Shown piece by piece: positions 3,976-22,237 of a stretch of 64,000 nucleotides of DNA. Both the position numbers and the translations under genes were made by a program. How positions within the stretch are numbered: position 1 is the stretch's first letter; each line of letters opens with the position of its first letter. The DNA lies in contig JBBSVW010000073.1 in the NCBI GenBank assembly GCA_038046605.1, positions 11,023 to 75,022 of the forward strand, given 5' to 3'. The DNA is from Candidatus Micrarchaeota archaeon (GTDB lineage: Archaea > Micrarchaeota > Micrarchaeia > Norongarragalinales > SBBD01). A model generated the notes under the pieces. It was not told the DNA's origin. It was given only the letters and a program-made list of their open reading frames with translations, and did no database searches.

Positions 3976-5364
3976 ATGGATATCGGGCAACTTGATTTGG
4001 ACCTGGCAAATGCCGCCAAACGCAATATTATCTTCGGAAAAGAGCCCCTTGTGCTTGCACGAACCGAAAATTCCGACCTCCTATCGGCATCCAAGGAATC
4101 CGGAGTTGAATTCTTTGAACGCGTTTTTTCTTCAGATGGGCCGCTTTGGCGCATGTACCAGGAAGCCCGCCTTGGCTACCTCCCGGAAAATGCCTCCCAC
4201 CTCAATTTTATTGCGGGAAGGATGTATTTCCTTAGGAATGTTGAGAAAAAATACCTGCGATCCTCCGGCATGGAAAAAAATTATGCGTGGAGTGATGGAA
4301 AATTAACGGAATTTGCGCCCATCTCCCCCCAAAACGCCCTTCTGTTCATCTCATCGCCATTTGGAATGCTCTCGCAGGCGCTCGACATTTCCTTGCTTCC
4401 CCTCTATGTTGACGAAAAGATGCGCGAATTTGGCACCTTCAAGGAAAAAACCCTGCGCTATTATTCCGAGCACAAGGGTTCAACTGCGCATCCGGTGGAA
4501 CTGGCAAAAGAATCGCTGGCAAATGCCGTGCAATCGATGCACTATTCGTTTATTTCATCCCTTGCCGCCGCATTCAAAATCAAAATGCGCAATTCCGGGC
4601 AATGGGGGGTTTGCGAAGCCGAAACGCTATTTCATCTATTGGAGAAGGGCGATATTGATGGGGCAGCAAGGCAATACGGATTCCATTCGGTTTCCCCCTA
4701 CGACATATCCGCTGCAAGATTCCACGAGGATCTCAAATATGCCAAAAGAAAGCCCGTTCCCTTCCCTCTGGATCCCTATGCGCGCCTGCGTGAGAACGCC
4801 AAATTCCAATGCTCCCGCTACCTTGATTTGATGCGTGATGCATATGTTTCAATTGGCGAGGAATCCGGCATTGGCGGGCTTGTGTTCTACTTGAAAACCG
4901 ACGAATTGGAATCCACCATAGCCGACCCCCGCAAATGGAAGGAGGAGGCGCAAAGAAGGAAAAAGGAATATGATGGATGGGCGGGGCTGGATTTGCCTGA
5001 TACCTTTGTTTATGCAAATGGTGCTTGGGTCGAATACGCGGAGAAATCGCCCTCTATAGTTGGAATTCCGGCAGGCGCCCCGATGGAGGCAAAGGGCGAA
5101 GCTGTTTTCATCAACGAGGAAAAGGATTATTCCAAAAGCGTTGGCGGTAAAATCATCATCTCAAAAACTTTCTCCCCAAACCTTGCCTCGATCTTGAAGG
5201 GTTCAGCCGGAATAATCAGCTCATCCGGAGGGGTGCTTGCACATACGGCAATAATTGCCAGGGAGATGGGAATTCCGTGCATAGTTTCAGCTAAAGGCGT
5301 TGATGGCATAAAGGAAGGGCAAATCGTAACAATTGATGGAAAAAGTGGCAAGATTTCCATTTGA
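3976..5364 (+). CDS. Protein with C-terminal PEP-utilising enzyme mobile (phospho-His swivel) domain
   Basis: GGVLAHTAIIAREMGIPCIV...VTIDGKSGKI. Confidence 0.85.
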   Translation: MDIGQLDLDLANAAKRNIIFGKEPLVLARTENSDLLSASKESGVEFFERVFSSDGPLWRMYQEARLGYLPENASHLNFIAGRMYFLRNVEKKYLRSSGMEKNYAWSDGKLTEFAPISPQNALLFISSPFGMLSQALDISLLPLYVDEKMREFGTFKEKTLRYYSEHKGSTAHPVELAKESLANAVQSMHYSFISSLAAAFKIKMRNSGQWGVCEAETLFHLLEKGDIDGAARQYGFHSVSPYDISAARFHEDLKYAKRKPVPFPLDPYARLRENAKFQCSRYLDLMRDAYVSIGEESGIGGLVFYLKTDELESTIADPRKWKEEAQRRKKEYDGWAGLDLPDTFVYANGAWVEYAEKSPSIVGIPAGAPMEAKGEAVFINEEKDYSKSVGGKIIISKTFSPNLASILKGSAGIISSSGGVLAHTAIIAREMGIPCIVSAKGVDGIKEGQIVTIDGKSGKISI

Positions 5365-17999: not shown

Positions 18000-18072
18000 C
18001 CGGATTCCCATAGAATACGGATATGCCTAGACTCGAAGTCTTGTGCAGGGGGAGGCACTCCCCCGTCGCGGA
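18000..18072 (+). ncRNA. Possible tRNA-like / structured element (non-canonical)
   Basis: Cloverleaf-like arm spacing over 73 nt, but the acceptor stem is poor and the T-loop non-canonical; see findings. Confidence 0.2.
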
Positions 18073-18077
18073 TTTCC

Positions 18078-18092
18078 AAAGCAATTTATATT
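18078..18092 (+). promoter_or_regulatory. Putative archaeal BRE/TATA box of the ATPase gene
   Basis: AAAGCAATTTATATT about 30 nt upstream of ATG 18121. Confidence 0.45.
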
Positions 18093-18120
18093 CAGGGGGT
18101 ATAACGCTTTAGGTAAGGCT

Positions 18121-20367
18121 ATGGTTGGCGAATTCGTTGTCAAAAGCGAGGGCGGTAGGCGCCAGCTCATCATCAATTACAAGGGCTCCCCGTATGGGGC
18201 AGACATTGCGCAGTATGCGCCTTGCATGAAGGATGTTGTCGAAAAACTAAGGGAAGTCGATGCGGATGAGGTCGTGCTCTCCGAATACTATGAAAAGATC
18301 TACAATGCCGAACAAGTCGGGCTTCTTAGGGGAATAAGCGATCTTATCCAAAAGCTCGAAGCGCAGGCAGTATGGTCGCCAAGCAACCTTGGAAATACGA
18401 ATGATTCCAAGCTACTGGCGCCAAGGCACGATGCCATAATGCAAGCCCTTGATTTGCTTCCGGGAGACCCCTTCCGCGCCTACCTGGCAATTTTACAGGA
18501 AATAAAAACCCAGATGGCGCGCGCGCAAGCCTCGAATGAAGCGGCGCTTGATGACCTCAAGGTCTATCTCAAAACGCTTGGATTCATGCGAAGCGAGCTG
18601 GAAAAAACGCAGCTAATCTCCTCAATGAAAAAATACCTGTTGCAGCTTGCAACAATCCCAACTGACCGCAACATCTACCGCACGCTTTTCGAAGCGGCAA
18701 TAAAGCCATCCTTCATAGGCTCGCGCATCTTCTTTACCGGCTCTGAAAACCTGCAGCTAATCGACCAGTATGATGTGATTGGCACGAAGGTTTACATCTA
18801 CAAGCACCCGGAAAAAGTCGAGCTTCTCTACTATATCAACCCTCCCGAATACACCCTTTCGCCCGAAAAATATTTCCTCCTGGAAAAGACAAAGGAGGTC
18901 GTTTCAACCCACCGCCCGGCGTCCGTATCCTTCCTTGACATGCAGCAGGCGCGCAAGTATTTCCGCAAGATTTACATGGCAACAATCAACGATTTGGCAA
19001 CCCAAAACAACATAAAAATATCCGCAGAGGAAAAAGATGAGCTTTCGACCATTGTCAGCAGGTACACAATTGGCTACGGAATCATGGAAATCCTCCTATC
19101 CGACAGGCAGCTCACCGACGTGTATGTTGATTCCCCGCTCGGCGAAAAGCCCATCTACCTCGTCCATAGCAAATACGGCCAGTGCCAAACAAATGTGATA
19201 TTTTCCCAGGAGGAGGCAAAAAGCCTGATTTCAAGGTTCCGCGCACTATCTGGGCGGCCCTTTGATGAAGCCCACCCCATCCTGGATTTTGATCTGCCCG
19301 ATTTGCAAACCCGCATTGCAGCAATTGGCAGGCCCCTTGCGGTTGACGGGACGGCCTTTGCCTTGCGTTTGCACAAGGAAACACCCTGGACGCTCACGCA
19401 ATTTTTGGATTTCCGCATGTTCAATCCCCTAACCGCCGGGCTTTTGTCATTCATGGTGGATGCTCAGGCATCAATGCTGATTGTTGGAAGCAGGGGCGCG
19501 GGCAAGACGTCGATCCTTCAAAGTTTAATGCAGGAAATTCCTCAAAACCTAAGGATAATTGTGCAGGAAGACACTTTAGAATTGCCTGTCCATTCCCTCA
19601 AGCGCCTTGGCTTTTCCATCCAGCGGCTCAAAACAAGGGCGCCCCTTGGGATGCAAAGCGAATCCGAGGTGTCCGCTGAGGATGCGCTTAGGACTGCCCT
19701 TCGTTTGGGCGATTCGGTATTAATTGTAGGGGAGGTGAGGTCCGTTGAAGCTAGGGCCCTATTCGAAGCCATGAGGGTAGGGGCGGTTGGAAACGTTGTA
19801 ATGGGGACCATCCATGGCGAGAGCGCGTATTCCATTTGGGATCGAATTGTTAATGATTTGGGGGTTCCAACTACCTCATTCAAGGCAACTGATTTTGCAA
19901 TTGTTGCAACGCAGATCAGGTTCAAAGGATCGCTCAAGCGCCAAAGGAGGCTTATTGAAATCACGGAAGTCAAAAAGCATTGGACGCAGGATCCGGATAA
20001 GGAGGATGGCTTCCTTAACTGGATGATGTTTGATGCTGCAAAGGATGATTTGGAGTTTTTTGAGGAAAAAATCAAGGAATCCGAATGGCTAGATAAGCTG
20101 CAAAAAACCCGTGGGCTAAAGTTGGAGCAGATTTGGGATGAAATCCATGCGCGGGCGGATGCAAAGCAATACCTTGTGGATCTCAAGCGCAAATACTCCA
20201 TTCCTAAGCTTTTAGAAGCTGAAAACACATTGCCGGCGCACAGCCGCTATATGCTGCTATCAGAAGCGCAGCGCGAGGAGAATGGCAGTGTCGATCACAA
20301 GCAGCTGCTTAAGGATTACCGGGCGTGGGTCGATGATTACCTTGCCAAACCATTACTGAAGAAATAA
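18121..20367 (+). CDS. Type II/IV secretion system ATPase (archaeal pilus-assembly/VirB11-FlaI-like)
   Basis: Walker A GSRGAGKTS, QEDTLEL, ALRLGDSVLIVGEVR, MGTIHG; long N-terminal domain; probable start ATG 18121. Confidence 0.92.
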   Translation: MVGEFVVKSEGGRRQLIINYKGSPYGADIAQYAPCMKDVVEKLREVDADEVVLSEYYEKIYNAEQVGLLRGISDLIQKLEAQAVWSPSNLGNTNDSKLLAPRHDAIMQALDLLPGDPFRAYLAILQEIKTQMARAQASNEAALDDLKVYLKTLGFMRSELEKTQLISSMKKYLLQLATIPTDRNIYRTLFEAAIKPSFIGSRIFFTGSENLQLIDQYDVIGTKVYIYKHPEKVELLYYINPPEYTLSPEKYFLLEKTKEVVSTHRPASVSFLDMQQARKYFRKIYMATINDLATQNNIKISAEEKDELSTIVSRYTIGYGIMEILLSDRQLTDVYVDSPLGEKPIYLVHSKYGQCQTNVIFSQEEAKSLISRFRALSGRPFDEAHPILDFDLPDLQTRIAAIGRPLAVDGTAFALRLHKETPWTLTQFLDFRMFNPLTAGLLSFMVDAQASMLIVGSRGAGKTSILQSLMQEIPQNLRIIVQEDTLELPVHSLKRLGFSIQRLKTRAPLGMQSESEVSAEDALRTALRLGDSVLIVGEVRSVEARALFEAMRVGAVGNVVMGTIHGESAYSIWDRIVNDLGVPTTSFKATDFAIVATQIRFKGSLKRQRRLIEITEVKKHWTQDPDKEDGFLNWMMFDAAKDDLEFFEEKIKESEWLDKLQKTRGLKLEQIWDEIHARADAKQYLVDLKRKYSIPKLLEAENTLPAHSRYMLLSEAQREENGSVDHKQLLKDYRAWVDDYLAKPLLKK

Positions 20368-20841
20368 TGGGGTAGGGGCGACACGCGTAGGGGAAATGTG
20401 TTCCCCTAGAGGTGTCGATTACAAGGAGTGGGTTGACAACTATTTAGCGAAACCATTGCTCAAAAAATGAGGGGGTAGAGGCAACACGAGTAGGGGGATA
20501 CTTCCCCCTGTAGGTGTCGATTACAAGCAATGGGTTGACGACTACTTGGCAAAACCATTATTAAAGAAATAATGGGGTAGAGGCGATGTTGGAGTTGAAA
20601 GACAACTACGACATAAGTAGAGGCAAGCTCTACGCTACACGAGTAGGGGAAATGTGTTCCCCTATGGGTGTCGATTACAAGCAATGGGTGGACGGCTATT
20701 TGGCGAAGCCGCTGCTGAAGAAATAAATTCAATTAAATTGATACGCAGAAGTAACTAGGGGGGAGGCGGCGACACGTGGTGGGGGCTTAGCCCCCATTGG
20801 GTGTCGATGATTATTTGGCGAAGCCGCTTCTGAAGAAATAG
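20314..20841 (+). repeat. Tandem array: ATPase 3'-end plus four variant copies (20417-20470, 20519-20572, 20673-20726, 20803-20841), each preceded by a conserved hairpin
   Basis: Copies translate DYRAWVDDYLAKPLLKK*, DYKEWVDNYLAKPLLKK*, DYKQWVDDYLAKPLLKK*, DYKQWVDGYLAKPLLKK*, VDDYLAKPLLKK*. Hairpins at 20379-20417, 20482-20519, 20637-20671, 20770-20806. Confidence 0.95.
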
Positions 20842-20968
20842 GACTTGCAATTAAGCTCACGTGTTTTACTATTTGCACCTTAACCCTTTTTATTCCTCAT
20901 TTCAAAAAAATTATAGATTTTGCAACAGTTTAAAAGCCTCTTTTCCTTCAATTTTGCGAGGGGTATAG

Positions 20969-22237
20969 TTGAAAATTGGGATACTGACAGGCACTAGGCC
21001 TGACATCATCAAAATGGCGCCGGTCTACTGGGAGGCAAAGCGCTGGGGGCATAGGCCGGTTCTAATCCACACCTCGCAGCACTTCCCCTACCACCTATTC
21101 GAGGGCGTTTACCGGGATTTGGATTTGCCCTTCCCCCCTGATTATTTGGTGCAGTATGGCATTGTAAAGAAGCTGGGCGTGCACGTTTCAAAGGCGGCCT
21201 ATCATTTGGATGAGGGCGCTAATCTAGGGCTCTCCAAAAAATTCGAGAATCTTGCAACCAAAATCACCTCAAGAAGGCCAAATCCCGCTGCAACGGTGGG
21301 GAGCATAATGCTGGAGCTTAATTCCCTTTTCCAGGGCGAACTTAAGGATCTTGACATCCTGCTTGTGCATGGCGATACCCTGACAAACATGGCCGGCGCG
21401 CTTGCTGCTTCCCTTAACCTCATTCCCGTTGGCCATGTGGAGGCGGGCCTTCGAACTTTTTCAAAAGAGCCCTTTCCCGAGCAGATAGATACGCGTGTTG
21501 CGGATGCATGCTCCGATGTATATTTTGCAGCAACGAAAACCAACGAAATCAACCTGATAAATGAGGGGTATCAAAGAGACCGGATCTTTGTTGTTGGCAA
21601 TACCGTAGTTGATGCGGCGATATTTGCTGCCAGGAAAGGGAAATCGAGCCGCGCCTTTTTTGAGAAATTGGGCTTTGATTTTTCAAAAAAGCTGGTGTAT
21701 TTCTCATGCCATCGCAGGGAGAGCCTCATGCATGAGCAAAGGTTTAGGGCAATTGTTTTTGCAATGGCTAATCTTAGCGATCTTGGCTACCAAGTCCTTT
21801 GGTCGGTTAGGCCCGGGACACAAGAAGCTATCAATAAATACGGCCTGAATCCCATGCTGAAGGACCATCCAAACCTTCGCCGGGTATCTGAAATTCCAAG
21901 GTATTCCGATATTATGTTTTTCATTTCAAAATGCCATCTAGTTGCAACCGATTCCGGAAGCATGCAGGAGGAAACTGCCGCCCTTCATGTGCCAACTGTT
22001 ACCCTAAGATTTGTCACGGATAGGCCAGAGAGCGTAGATGCGGGAGTAAACATATTGGCACCGCCAACATCGGAAAAGGCAATCCGGTCGATACTTGATA
22101 CTGCCTCCTCTCCCAAGGTTAATAAGCAAATGCGCCTAAAAAAGAATCCTTACGGGGATGGCAAATCCGCCTTAAAAATAATTTCGTCACTAGAAAAGCT
22201 GGAGGGCAAATTTATCCGGTGGGAGCATGGAAAATAG
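20969..22237 (+). CDS. wecB: UDP-N-acetylglucosamine 2-epimerase (non-hydrolysing)
   Basis: GTRPDIIKMAP, VHGDT, GHVEAGLRT, VGNTVVDA, TDSGSMQEE, NPYGDG. Confidence 0.93.
   Translation: MKIGILTGTRPDIIKMAPVYWEAKRWGHRPVLIHTSQHFPYHLFEGVYRDLDLPFPPDYLVQYGIVKKLGVHVSKAAYHLDEGANLGLSKKFENLATKITSRRPNPAATVGSIMLELNSLFQGELKDLDILLVHGDTLTNMAGALAASLNLIPVGHVEAGLRTFSKEPFPEQIDTRVADACSDVYFAATKTNEINLINEGYQRDRIFVVGNTVVDAAIFAARKGKSSRAFFEKLGFDFSKKLVYFSCHRRESLMHEQRFRAIVFAMANLSDLGYQVLWSVRPGTQEAINKYGLNPMLKDHPNLRRVSEIPRYSDIMFFISKCHLVATDSGSMQEETAALHVPTVTLRFVTDRPESVDAGVNILAPPTSEKAIRSILDTASSPKVNKQMRLKKNPYGDGKSALKIISSLEKLEGKFIRWEHGK

Follow-up and report, generated by a model that had tools for sequence, protein, structure and literature searches.

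The DNA analysed here is a 64,000-nt window in the genome of a Micrarchaeota archaeon (contig JBBSVW010000073.1; the genome, denoted G000, has 1.64 Mb and is 90.7% complete); all coordinates below are positions in this window. It carries a gene for a secretion/pilus-type ATPase whose 3′ end is repeated behind the gene. The motif ...WVDxYLAKPLLKK* occurs five times within 20314-20841 (Table 1), once as the working tail of the gene (T0) and then in four downstream copies (T1-T4). The earlier note on this DNA had reported the four additional copies, and all of them were confirmed; it had left unmentioned what fills the gaps. Each gap between copies is occupied by one copy of a G+C-rich, non-coding hairpin element of 50-105 nt, hereafter E (copies E1-E4). 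Throughout the genome E duplicates gene ends in a protein-preserving manner, and nowhere more extremely than in the array.

The five tails differ mainly in codon choice, to a degree beyond chance. Over the last 12 codons they are separated by at least 17 synonymous steps versus 2 amino-acid-changing steps, and in pairwise comparisons synonymous divergence (pS) is 0.47-1.33, near or at saturation, with non-synonymous divergence (pN) of 0.02-0.14. These values answer the comparison across copies that the earlier note had proposed; each codon it gave for the residues L, A, K, P, L, L is correct, as is each stop, and so are the amino acid changes RA/KE/KQ and D/N/G. T1-T3 are each 8-12 nt away from T0, which itself differs at 4 of 39 nt from the tail of the ortholog in the relative G005. 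The AAGCCGCT codons of T4 are common to T3 and to the relatives G003, G006 and G007.

Table 1. Features of the ATPase tail array and its surroundings (positions in the 64,000-nt window)
Feature	Position	Strand	Description and evidence
ATPase gene	18043-20367	+	Secretion/pilus-type, 774 aa; open reading frame, PF00437 T2SSE, E=2.8e-21; owner of working tail T0
T0	20314-20367	+	Working tail, DYRAWVDDYLAKPLLKK + TAA; nearest: G005 ortholog tail
E1	20368-20416	+	Short type-A hairpin element; G-box GGGGTAGGGG + hairpin CGACAC...GTGTC; inverted repeat; fold -23.1 kcal/mol, z -4.0; matches genome-wide family
T1	20417-20470	+	Tail copy, DYKEWVDNYLAKPLLKK + TGA; 17-codon repeat of ATPase end
E2	20471-20518	+	Short type-A hairpin element; inverted repeat, fold, family match
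T2	20519-20572	+	Tail copy, DYKQWVDDYLAKPLLKK (DYKQWVDDY...) + TAA; 17-codon repeat of ATPase end
E3	20573-20672	+	Type-B element (type A + ~55 extra nt folding into two small hairpins); fold -38.3 kcal/mol, z -4.9
T3	20673-20726	+	Tail copy, DYKQWVDGYLAKPLLKK (DYKQWVDGY...) + TAA; 17-codon repeat of ATPase end
E4	20737-20805	+	Full-length type-A element, 5′ extension ...ACGCAGAAGTAACTAG; covariance-model match 80.1 bits
T4	20806-20841	+	Shortened tail, DDYLAKPLLKK + TAG; last 12 codons only
~45-nt stretch	20842-20886	+	Present here, not before the T-rich stretch of the G005 spacer (by-eye comparison)
UDP-GlcNAc 2-epimerase gene	20969-22237	+	PF02350; conserved downstream neighbour, outside the element; follows the ATPase gene in G003 and G005 too

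The ~45-nt stretch behind T4 is possibly a collapsed fifth E. Tandem Repeats Finder reports a period of 102 nt for the array; the spacings of the tail copies are 103, 102, 154 and 115 nt. Translation of the copies by read-through or in frame was considered and rejected, as only T1 to T2 is in frame and the remaining spacings are not multiples of three. At this single place (20468-20572) the TGA of T1 is in frame with T2 across E2 (102 nt), and read-through would give a product ...LLKK-x-GGRGNTSRGILPPVGVDYKQWVDDYLAKPLLKK. An ATG lies within the hairpin loop in E1 and E3 only. A CRISPR-like array was also rejected, since the would-be spacers are homologous to one another.

Three parts make up element E: the 5′ part, with the consensus ATTCGCAGAAGTAAATAA; the G-box; and a hairpin, supported by covariation, that ends in GTGTY and is followed by a purine. 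In the array copies the G-box reads GGGGTAGAGG or GGGGGAGGCGG and the hairpin CGACAC-internal loop-G4-5...C4-5-GTGTC; a different subtype of E is present in each array unit. The 3′ end of E is sharp, and the 5′ part is truncated to a variable extent. Compensatory changes were found at 7 of the 13 pairs of the palindromic body. On the E-sense strand G-U pairs occupy 12 cells versus 2 for A-C pairs, and this excess suggests a role as RNA or as a single strand. The purine after the terminal GTGTY is present in 90 of 93 copies from G000 and its relatives; it pairs with the pyrimidine before RACAC, so that the foot of the hairpin is one pair longer than first assumed. The same purine largely explains why at ~10 of 14 loci the downstream copy appeared, by eye, to be in phase with GGT GTC, and the idea of a codon phase was dropped.

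All reading frames of E contain stops, and the gaps in the array are 48-100 nt long. Inspection by eye of the array folds gave no intron motif of the bulge-helix-bulge (BHB) type. A permissive Rfam search of 20200-21000 returned no family, only three sub-threshold chance matches, and two degenerate E patterns, run against IMG/VR with a viral origin in mind, had no matches. No published description of E was found in literature searches.

A BLAST search of the array against its own genome gave 47 matches in all and reached 40+ other places; there it matched hairpin parts only, never the tails. With an nhmmer profile built from 39 copies, 63 E loci were found in G000, and a covariance model gave 84 matches. 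The same model was positive in all 11 genomes of the taxonomic family (f1; G000 included), with 5-77 matches in each of the 10 relatives, and in 2 of the 30 genomes outside it (one match in G037, two in G040). E is a repeat specific to one taxonomic family of Micrarchaeota. Relatives of the type-B form were seen at nine loci in a pattern-based census (E3 itself falls outside the pattern), and several of them match array positions 200-305 by BLAST. The element is extragenic: 8 of the 63 loci are inside an open reading frame (ORF) of at least 100 aa, compared with 78% of random sites, and 20 of the 63 directly follow the stop codon of such an ORF on the same strand, compared with 5.6% of random sites. 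Compound elements, with one E apparently inserted in, or recombined with, the hairpin of another, are present at C26:~14367, C76:~12953 and C89:~30624 (C-numbers denote G000 contigs unless another genome is given; L-numbers denote extracted loci).

A significant direct repeat flanks E at 20 of the 56 G000 loci that keep the 3′ end of the hairpin. Four of these are the array units; the other 16 lie elsewhere and share the layout, so the architecture is not confined to the ATPase gene. Related phenomena have been published (see below). Among congeners 24 of 62 sampled loci (from G001, G002, G003, G005 and G006) have such a repeat. The repeats are copied from the neighbouring gene or tRNA end and vary in length from 14 to 98 nt; they start at the hairpin foot and have their other end at the 5′ side of E. 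Since the repeat spans the stop codon, the start codon or the tRNA 3′ end of the target, the gene is left intact. Gene tails (those of an Hsp20-like gene, of two genes on C86 and of the C18 gene, a hydrogenase-like tail with DPCxxCxxH, and more), heads of genes on the opposite strand (archease-like on C90; C60; C50) and tRNA 3′ ends (C26, C9) all serve as targets. Four repeat pairs, those of young insertions, are identical (36, 29, 24 and 20 nt), which implies that the duplication arises upon insertion. Host ORFs often stop within E: the C18 frame ends in ...DPQK*, that on C9 in ...SQK*, that on C55 gains V*, and one on C86 ends at a TAG in the G-box. In mosaic repeats (C18, C9, L194, L213) a left block is identical and a right block differs at every third base.

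Two further loci were recorded in passing. L197 (G002:C73:3752-4954) has three tandem, near-identical units of 65-71 nt, each closing in the start of E. On C42 (~4900-5200, L057) the tail present in duplicate, AYDPCMSCATHFLKVKW, has the DPCxxCxxH motif known from [NiFe]-hydrogenase large subunits; the open frame upstream is short, so this tail may itself belong to a longer stack.

The bias towards synonymous change is not confined to the array. We pooled 34 repeat pairs with the array excluded (380 codons, frames chosen automatically). The 113 differences were distributed over codon positions 1, 2 and 3 as 22/18/73, with 66.3 synonymous (Sd) and 46.7 non-synonymous (Nd) differences and pN/pS of 0.17. 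The non-synonymous share, 47 of 113, is to be compared with an expected fraction of 0.68 for a neutral copy paired with a fully constrained one (p=1e-8). Some frames were mis-assigned (e.g. on C42), which inflates the non-synonymous count and makes the test conservative. A zinc-ribbon gene of G002 and its repeat at E differ, counted by eye over 22 codons, by 10 synonymous and 3 non-synonymous changes. Both in the array and in the pooled pairs the dN/dS ratio is far under the value of at least 0.5 expected with one neutral copy; this supports the view, taken for the array in the earlier note from its codons, that the copies are not dead duplicates that decayed where they lie. From the nearly exclusive synonymous differences we infer that the copies were shaped while translated.

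Orthologs of the ATPase gene are present in all 41 genomes searched, G000 included. In G002, G005, G006 and G007 the gene has a single tail and no E; orthologs of the Hsp20, FKBP and C18 genes likewise have single tails in most congeners. The ATPase gene of G003 is followed by one E and one extra tail, with the same junction as in G000, and its two copies differ by 4 synonymous changes. In G004 (L053, G004:C53 1-1400) two ATPase tail copies enclose a gene for a secreted Peptidase_S8 subtilase, without E; this insert is gene-sized and has a target duplication of ~70 nt at the same hot spot, and its spare tail shows 4 non-synonymous versus 5 synonymous changes. Within the genus the ATPase tail is a hot spot for insertion, with the extra tail of G003 and the subtilase cassette of G004 as cases in point. 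Repeated arrivals at one point, as the earlier note had it, find support in this; its picture of island-sized incoming DNA does not, the units being hairpins of 50-105 nt.

The same gene ends are occupied across species: those of the ATPase, Hsp20 and archease genes in both G000 and G003, and that of the FKBP gene in G000 and G005. The nearest relative, G005, has an ATPase gene just 79% identical to that of G000, and with relatives this diverged the changes cannot be polarised. For Hsp20, FKBP and C18 both copies are about equally far from the congener tails (65-82% identity, a high divergence). The adjacency of the ATPase and epimerase genes is identical in G003, with one extra tail, and in G005, with none; the array, which the earlier note had placed at the left border of a glycan island, is therefore no island border, and the glycan genes are bystanders. 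Separately, the ATPase orthologs of G001, G004, G006, G008-G010 and others are matched in two to three pieces within open frames of 1000-1800 aa, which suggests one or two inteins near the P-loop region; the G000 copy has none.

No enzyme that could move E was identified in the families searched. Phage integrases (PF00589) had no matches in the 90.7%-complete G000 (controls were positive in 14 of 14 genomes; serine recombinases were not searched), which extends to the whole genome the observation that the window lacks an integrase. Mobilisation by TnpB with omega RNA was rejected, as the TnpB-type zinc ribbon (PF07282) has no match in G000. A diversity-generating retroelement was rejected as well: there are no matches to the reverse transcriptase family RVT_1 (PF00078) in G000, and the differences between copies are of all base types, not adenine-specific, and synonymous.

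The only Y1_Tnp gene of G000 (IS200-like, 148 aa) is at L032 (G000:C9:22797-26150), 1.1 kb from a type-B E; a tRNA gene and a free-standing LAGLIDADG ORF (277 aa) lie between them, and the flank of this E repeats the 3′ end of that tRNA. No E ends flank this gene. Y1_Tnp is present in G000, G004, G008, G009 and G010, that is, in 4 of the 10 E-bearing relatives; the search did not find it in G001, G002 (77 E matches), G003, G005 (52 matches), G006 and G007 (genomes 84-91% complete). Given this lack of co-occurrence, Y1_Tnp was not taken as the mobilising enzyme, and mobilisation of E by a Y1 transposase of the type associated with repetitive extragenic palindromes (RAYT) was rejected. In sum, the Y1_Tnp, TnpB and integrase searches yielded no parent insertion sequence and no transposase acting in trans; other transposase families were not searched.

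The explanation that we tentatively prefer, at somewhat less than even confidence, is serial insertion of E with long target duplication at a hot spot, the tails probably coming from functional alleles by recombination. On this view E would have reached the ATPase gene end on four separate occasions, perhaps five, and the array would be what these arrivals left behind. As no dedicated enzyme travels with E, insertion would rely on host replication or recombination. Copying could enter an E template through microhomology at the stop-codon region; synthesis would stall at the hairpin foot and re-anneal up to ~100 nt upstream on the original template, leaving the order tail-E-tail. The 5′ part of E resembles stop-codon regions: GAAGAAATAA of the ATPase tail aligns with GAAGTAAATAA of E, a resemblance that we propose would make this gene a hot spot. 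Homologous recombination with DNA from a related lineage in which E already follows this gene would then bring in a donor tail and displace the resident tail downstream, and repeated imports would stack the tails. Import from related lineages is most likely the source of the synonymous divergence; in its favour are the different E subtype in each array unit, the mosaic repeats, and the same genes being hit across species.

Several observations weigh against this explanation. A donor is missing: a DYKQ/DYKE tail or a tail copy was seen in 0 of 6 congeners and in 0 of the 75 evaluable ATPase loci among 80 from metagenomes (L106, L133, L164, L123 and L141 were left out), the nearest tail among the 75 being G005-like. 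The proposal that each copy is a former functional tail is thus upheld in part: the synonymous pattern is compatible with working tails, but comparison with the working tails of other alleles produced no match. T0 is nearest to the G005 tail, whereas T1-T3 stand 8-12 nt away from T0, and this too speaks against import. Lineage-specific residues recur in the copies and in the resident tail: T0-T3 all have DY, the two G003 copies NI..RK, and the two FKBP copies of G005 QT; a local origin fits these at least as well as import does. With synonymous sites saturated, the donors would have to be as distant as other species and yet identical in protein. Repeat pairs with only 1-2 differences already lean towards synonymous change, which import does not predict. 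Finally, the template-switch route is one that we infer.

In a possible, though less probable, version of events E together with the neighbouring gene-end copy would be an enzyme-free homing module, or else the downstream copies would be kept in use in place. In such a module the hairpin would mark where copying stops and the carried gene end would supply homology, so that the module would spread between lineages by swapping in recoded gene ends.

Selection in place can also be considered without homing. Here E would insert with long target duplication, and the downstream copies would be held protein-preserving where they are; we consider this unlikely, yet a serious rival to import. When the fragile hairpin breaks, the working tail might be repaired or converted with the copies as templates; alternatively, removal of E plus one copy, from the DNA or from the RNA, might allow both copies to be used. 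Such selection would account for the species-specific residues common to both copies, for E and its repeat on the same gene ends in two species (the junction, too, agrees between them at the ATPase gene and at archease), and for the synonymous bias of low-divergence pairs. The sole tail duplicate without E, that at the subtilase gene of G004, has its 4 non-synonymous and 5 synonymous changes like a decaying copy, and the excess of G-U over A-C pairs on the E-sense strand points the same way. Against it, there is no translation route, the copies being out of frame with the gene and E having stops in all frames; no BHB-like motif was seen by eye; and some downstream copies have 1-nt indels at their edges (C18; Hsp20 of G003), T4 being truncated. 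Moreover, conversion frequent enough to preserve the copies should homogenise synonymous sites, yet these are saturated.

It is improbable that E is immobile, a conserved 3′-UTR (untranslated region) or terminator hairpin of the host, with the tails arising from slipped-strand or unequal-crossover duplication at a fragile palindrome. The presence of E in every genome of the family, its position after stop codons, its structure conserved with covariation and the lack of a linked transposase would all suit such a hairpin. However, orthologous sites differ in whether they carry E, the element is framed by its repeats exactly in the manner of target duplications, and E is found nested in E. Local duplication would also copy a single subtype, in conflict with the different subtype in each array unit, and local duplicates would decay, which the pooled codon test rejects.

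The model of the earlier note, serial site-specific integration of larger elements or islands that bring replacement tails and later lose their bodies, has very little probability left and is largely refuted. In its favour, stacked att-like repeats beside gene and tRNA ends are known for integrase-borne islands, and G004 has a gene-sized insert with a tail repeat at the ATPase gene. The model is contradicted by the absence of PF00589 matches in G000 with controls positive in 14 of 14 genomes, by the 50-105-nt dispersed repeat between the tails, by a repeat length of 14-98 nt over dozens of different targets and by the conserved synteny of the epimerase gene.

The array itself is well supported by contigs assembled independently from two samples, each of which recovers it in three overlapping, error-free pieces (19900-20497, 20480-20785 and 20768-21100 in sample X1; 20088-20493, 20620-20797 and 20768-21100 in sample X2). 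T0-E1-T1, T2-E3-T3, and T4 with the downstream flank have zero differences in the independent contigs. The T1-T2 and T3-T4 links cross repeated hairpins with overlaps of 18 nt only, and so both rest on the original assembly. The two-sample contigs contain one single-base variant at the array and no alternative form of it, that is, essentially one sequence; this counts against import but carries little weight, since contigs drop rare variants. A chimera assembled from co-occurring strains, for which just these two 18-nt bridges could be cited, is scarcely credible, because single contigs of the source sample span T0-E1-T1 and T2-E3-T3 without error, the second sample, with hardly any coverage of T2, likewise has T0-E1-T1 intact, and six further genomes show the architecture too, among them ones assembled into 7 and 20 contigs.

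Parts of this picture resemble known systems. REP/REPIN sequences (repetitive extragenic palindromes) and MITEs (miniature inverted-repeat transposable elements) are short, G+C-rich extragenic palindromes found near gene ends in tens of copies per genome. E is like the former in being an extragenic palindrome in many copies (63 loci), and differs from RAYT-associated REP/REPIN in that no single-copy Y1 gene flanked by E co-occurs with it. It has the palindromic body of a MITE (13 pairs, 7 compensatory), but its flanking duplication is long and variable (14-98 nt), where REP/REPIN and MITEs have none or one of small, constant length. Islands bearing an integrase can accrete in tandem at tRNA, tmRNA and gene 3′ ends, a process that needs this enzyme and a constant att core. 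The array shares with it the stacked direct repeats of a gene 3′ end; unlike it, the array has no PF00589 integrase, the inserts are hairpins, and both target and repeat length differ from locus to locus.

A close match is insertion with long, variable target duplication as described by Furuta et al. (2010; PMC2853133), citing Nobusato et al. (2000), and we place E with this class by its proposed mechanism. The inserts of this class, like E, have no transposase or integrase, and on either side of them stand direct repeats that exceed 30 bp and vary in length, which align to a single copy at the empty site and often overlap a gene 3′ end or a tRNA. Our loci behave in the same way: the ATPase site is empty in G005 and occupied in G000 and G003, with single FKBP, Hsp20 and C18 tails in most congeners. 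The inserts in PMC2853133, unlike E, carry restriction-modification genes and come from bacteria, no archaeal case having come through the screen of that paper; their repeats are near-identical, and neither a hairpin repeat family nor synonymous divergence is reported.

A parallel for the recoded tails is provided by the mitochondrial atp6, atp9, cox2 and nad3 hybrids of Glomus (PMC3630166; an Allomyces atp6 hybrid is cited therein), in which mobile endonuclease ORFs bring a C-terminus and displace the native one. The tail pairs are 64-81% identical in DNA and nearly identical in protein, for which the authors invoke horizontal transfer. As in the array, the working gene ends in an inserted tail and the native tail is orphaned downstream. 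In PMC3630166 each element has one site and a LAGLIDADG or GIY-YIG homing endonuclease that provides the mechanism, and arrays are not described there. E, in contrast, encodes nothing (the 48-100-nt gaps contain no endonuclease ORF) and is found at many gene heads, gene tails and tRNA ends.

Should the homing-module or in-place reading be true, it would be a means, not described before, by which a non-coding repeat takes hold in ultra-compact archaeal genomes with genes unbroken; under either, readable stacks of former gene ends are left behind. Structures of E plus repeat will be annotated wrongly, whether as pseudogenes, as att sites or as errors of assembly. The genomes of DPANN archaea are tiny and densely packed with genes, and nearly every insertion into them is lethal. 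Their tolerance of dozens of mobile copies would be explained by a repeat whose entry is limited to places where its long target duplication rebuilds the gene end. Should the copies have been imported, the arrays would record, with dates, how lineages exchanged gene ends, and would offer a way to study recombination in uncultivated archaea; should they be maintained in place, they would be non-translated DNA under codon-level constraint by a mechanism not yet described.

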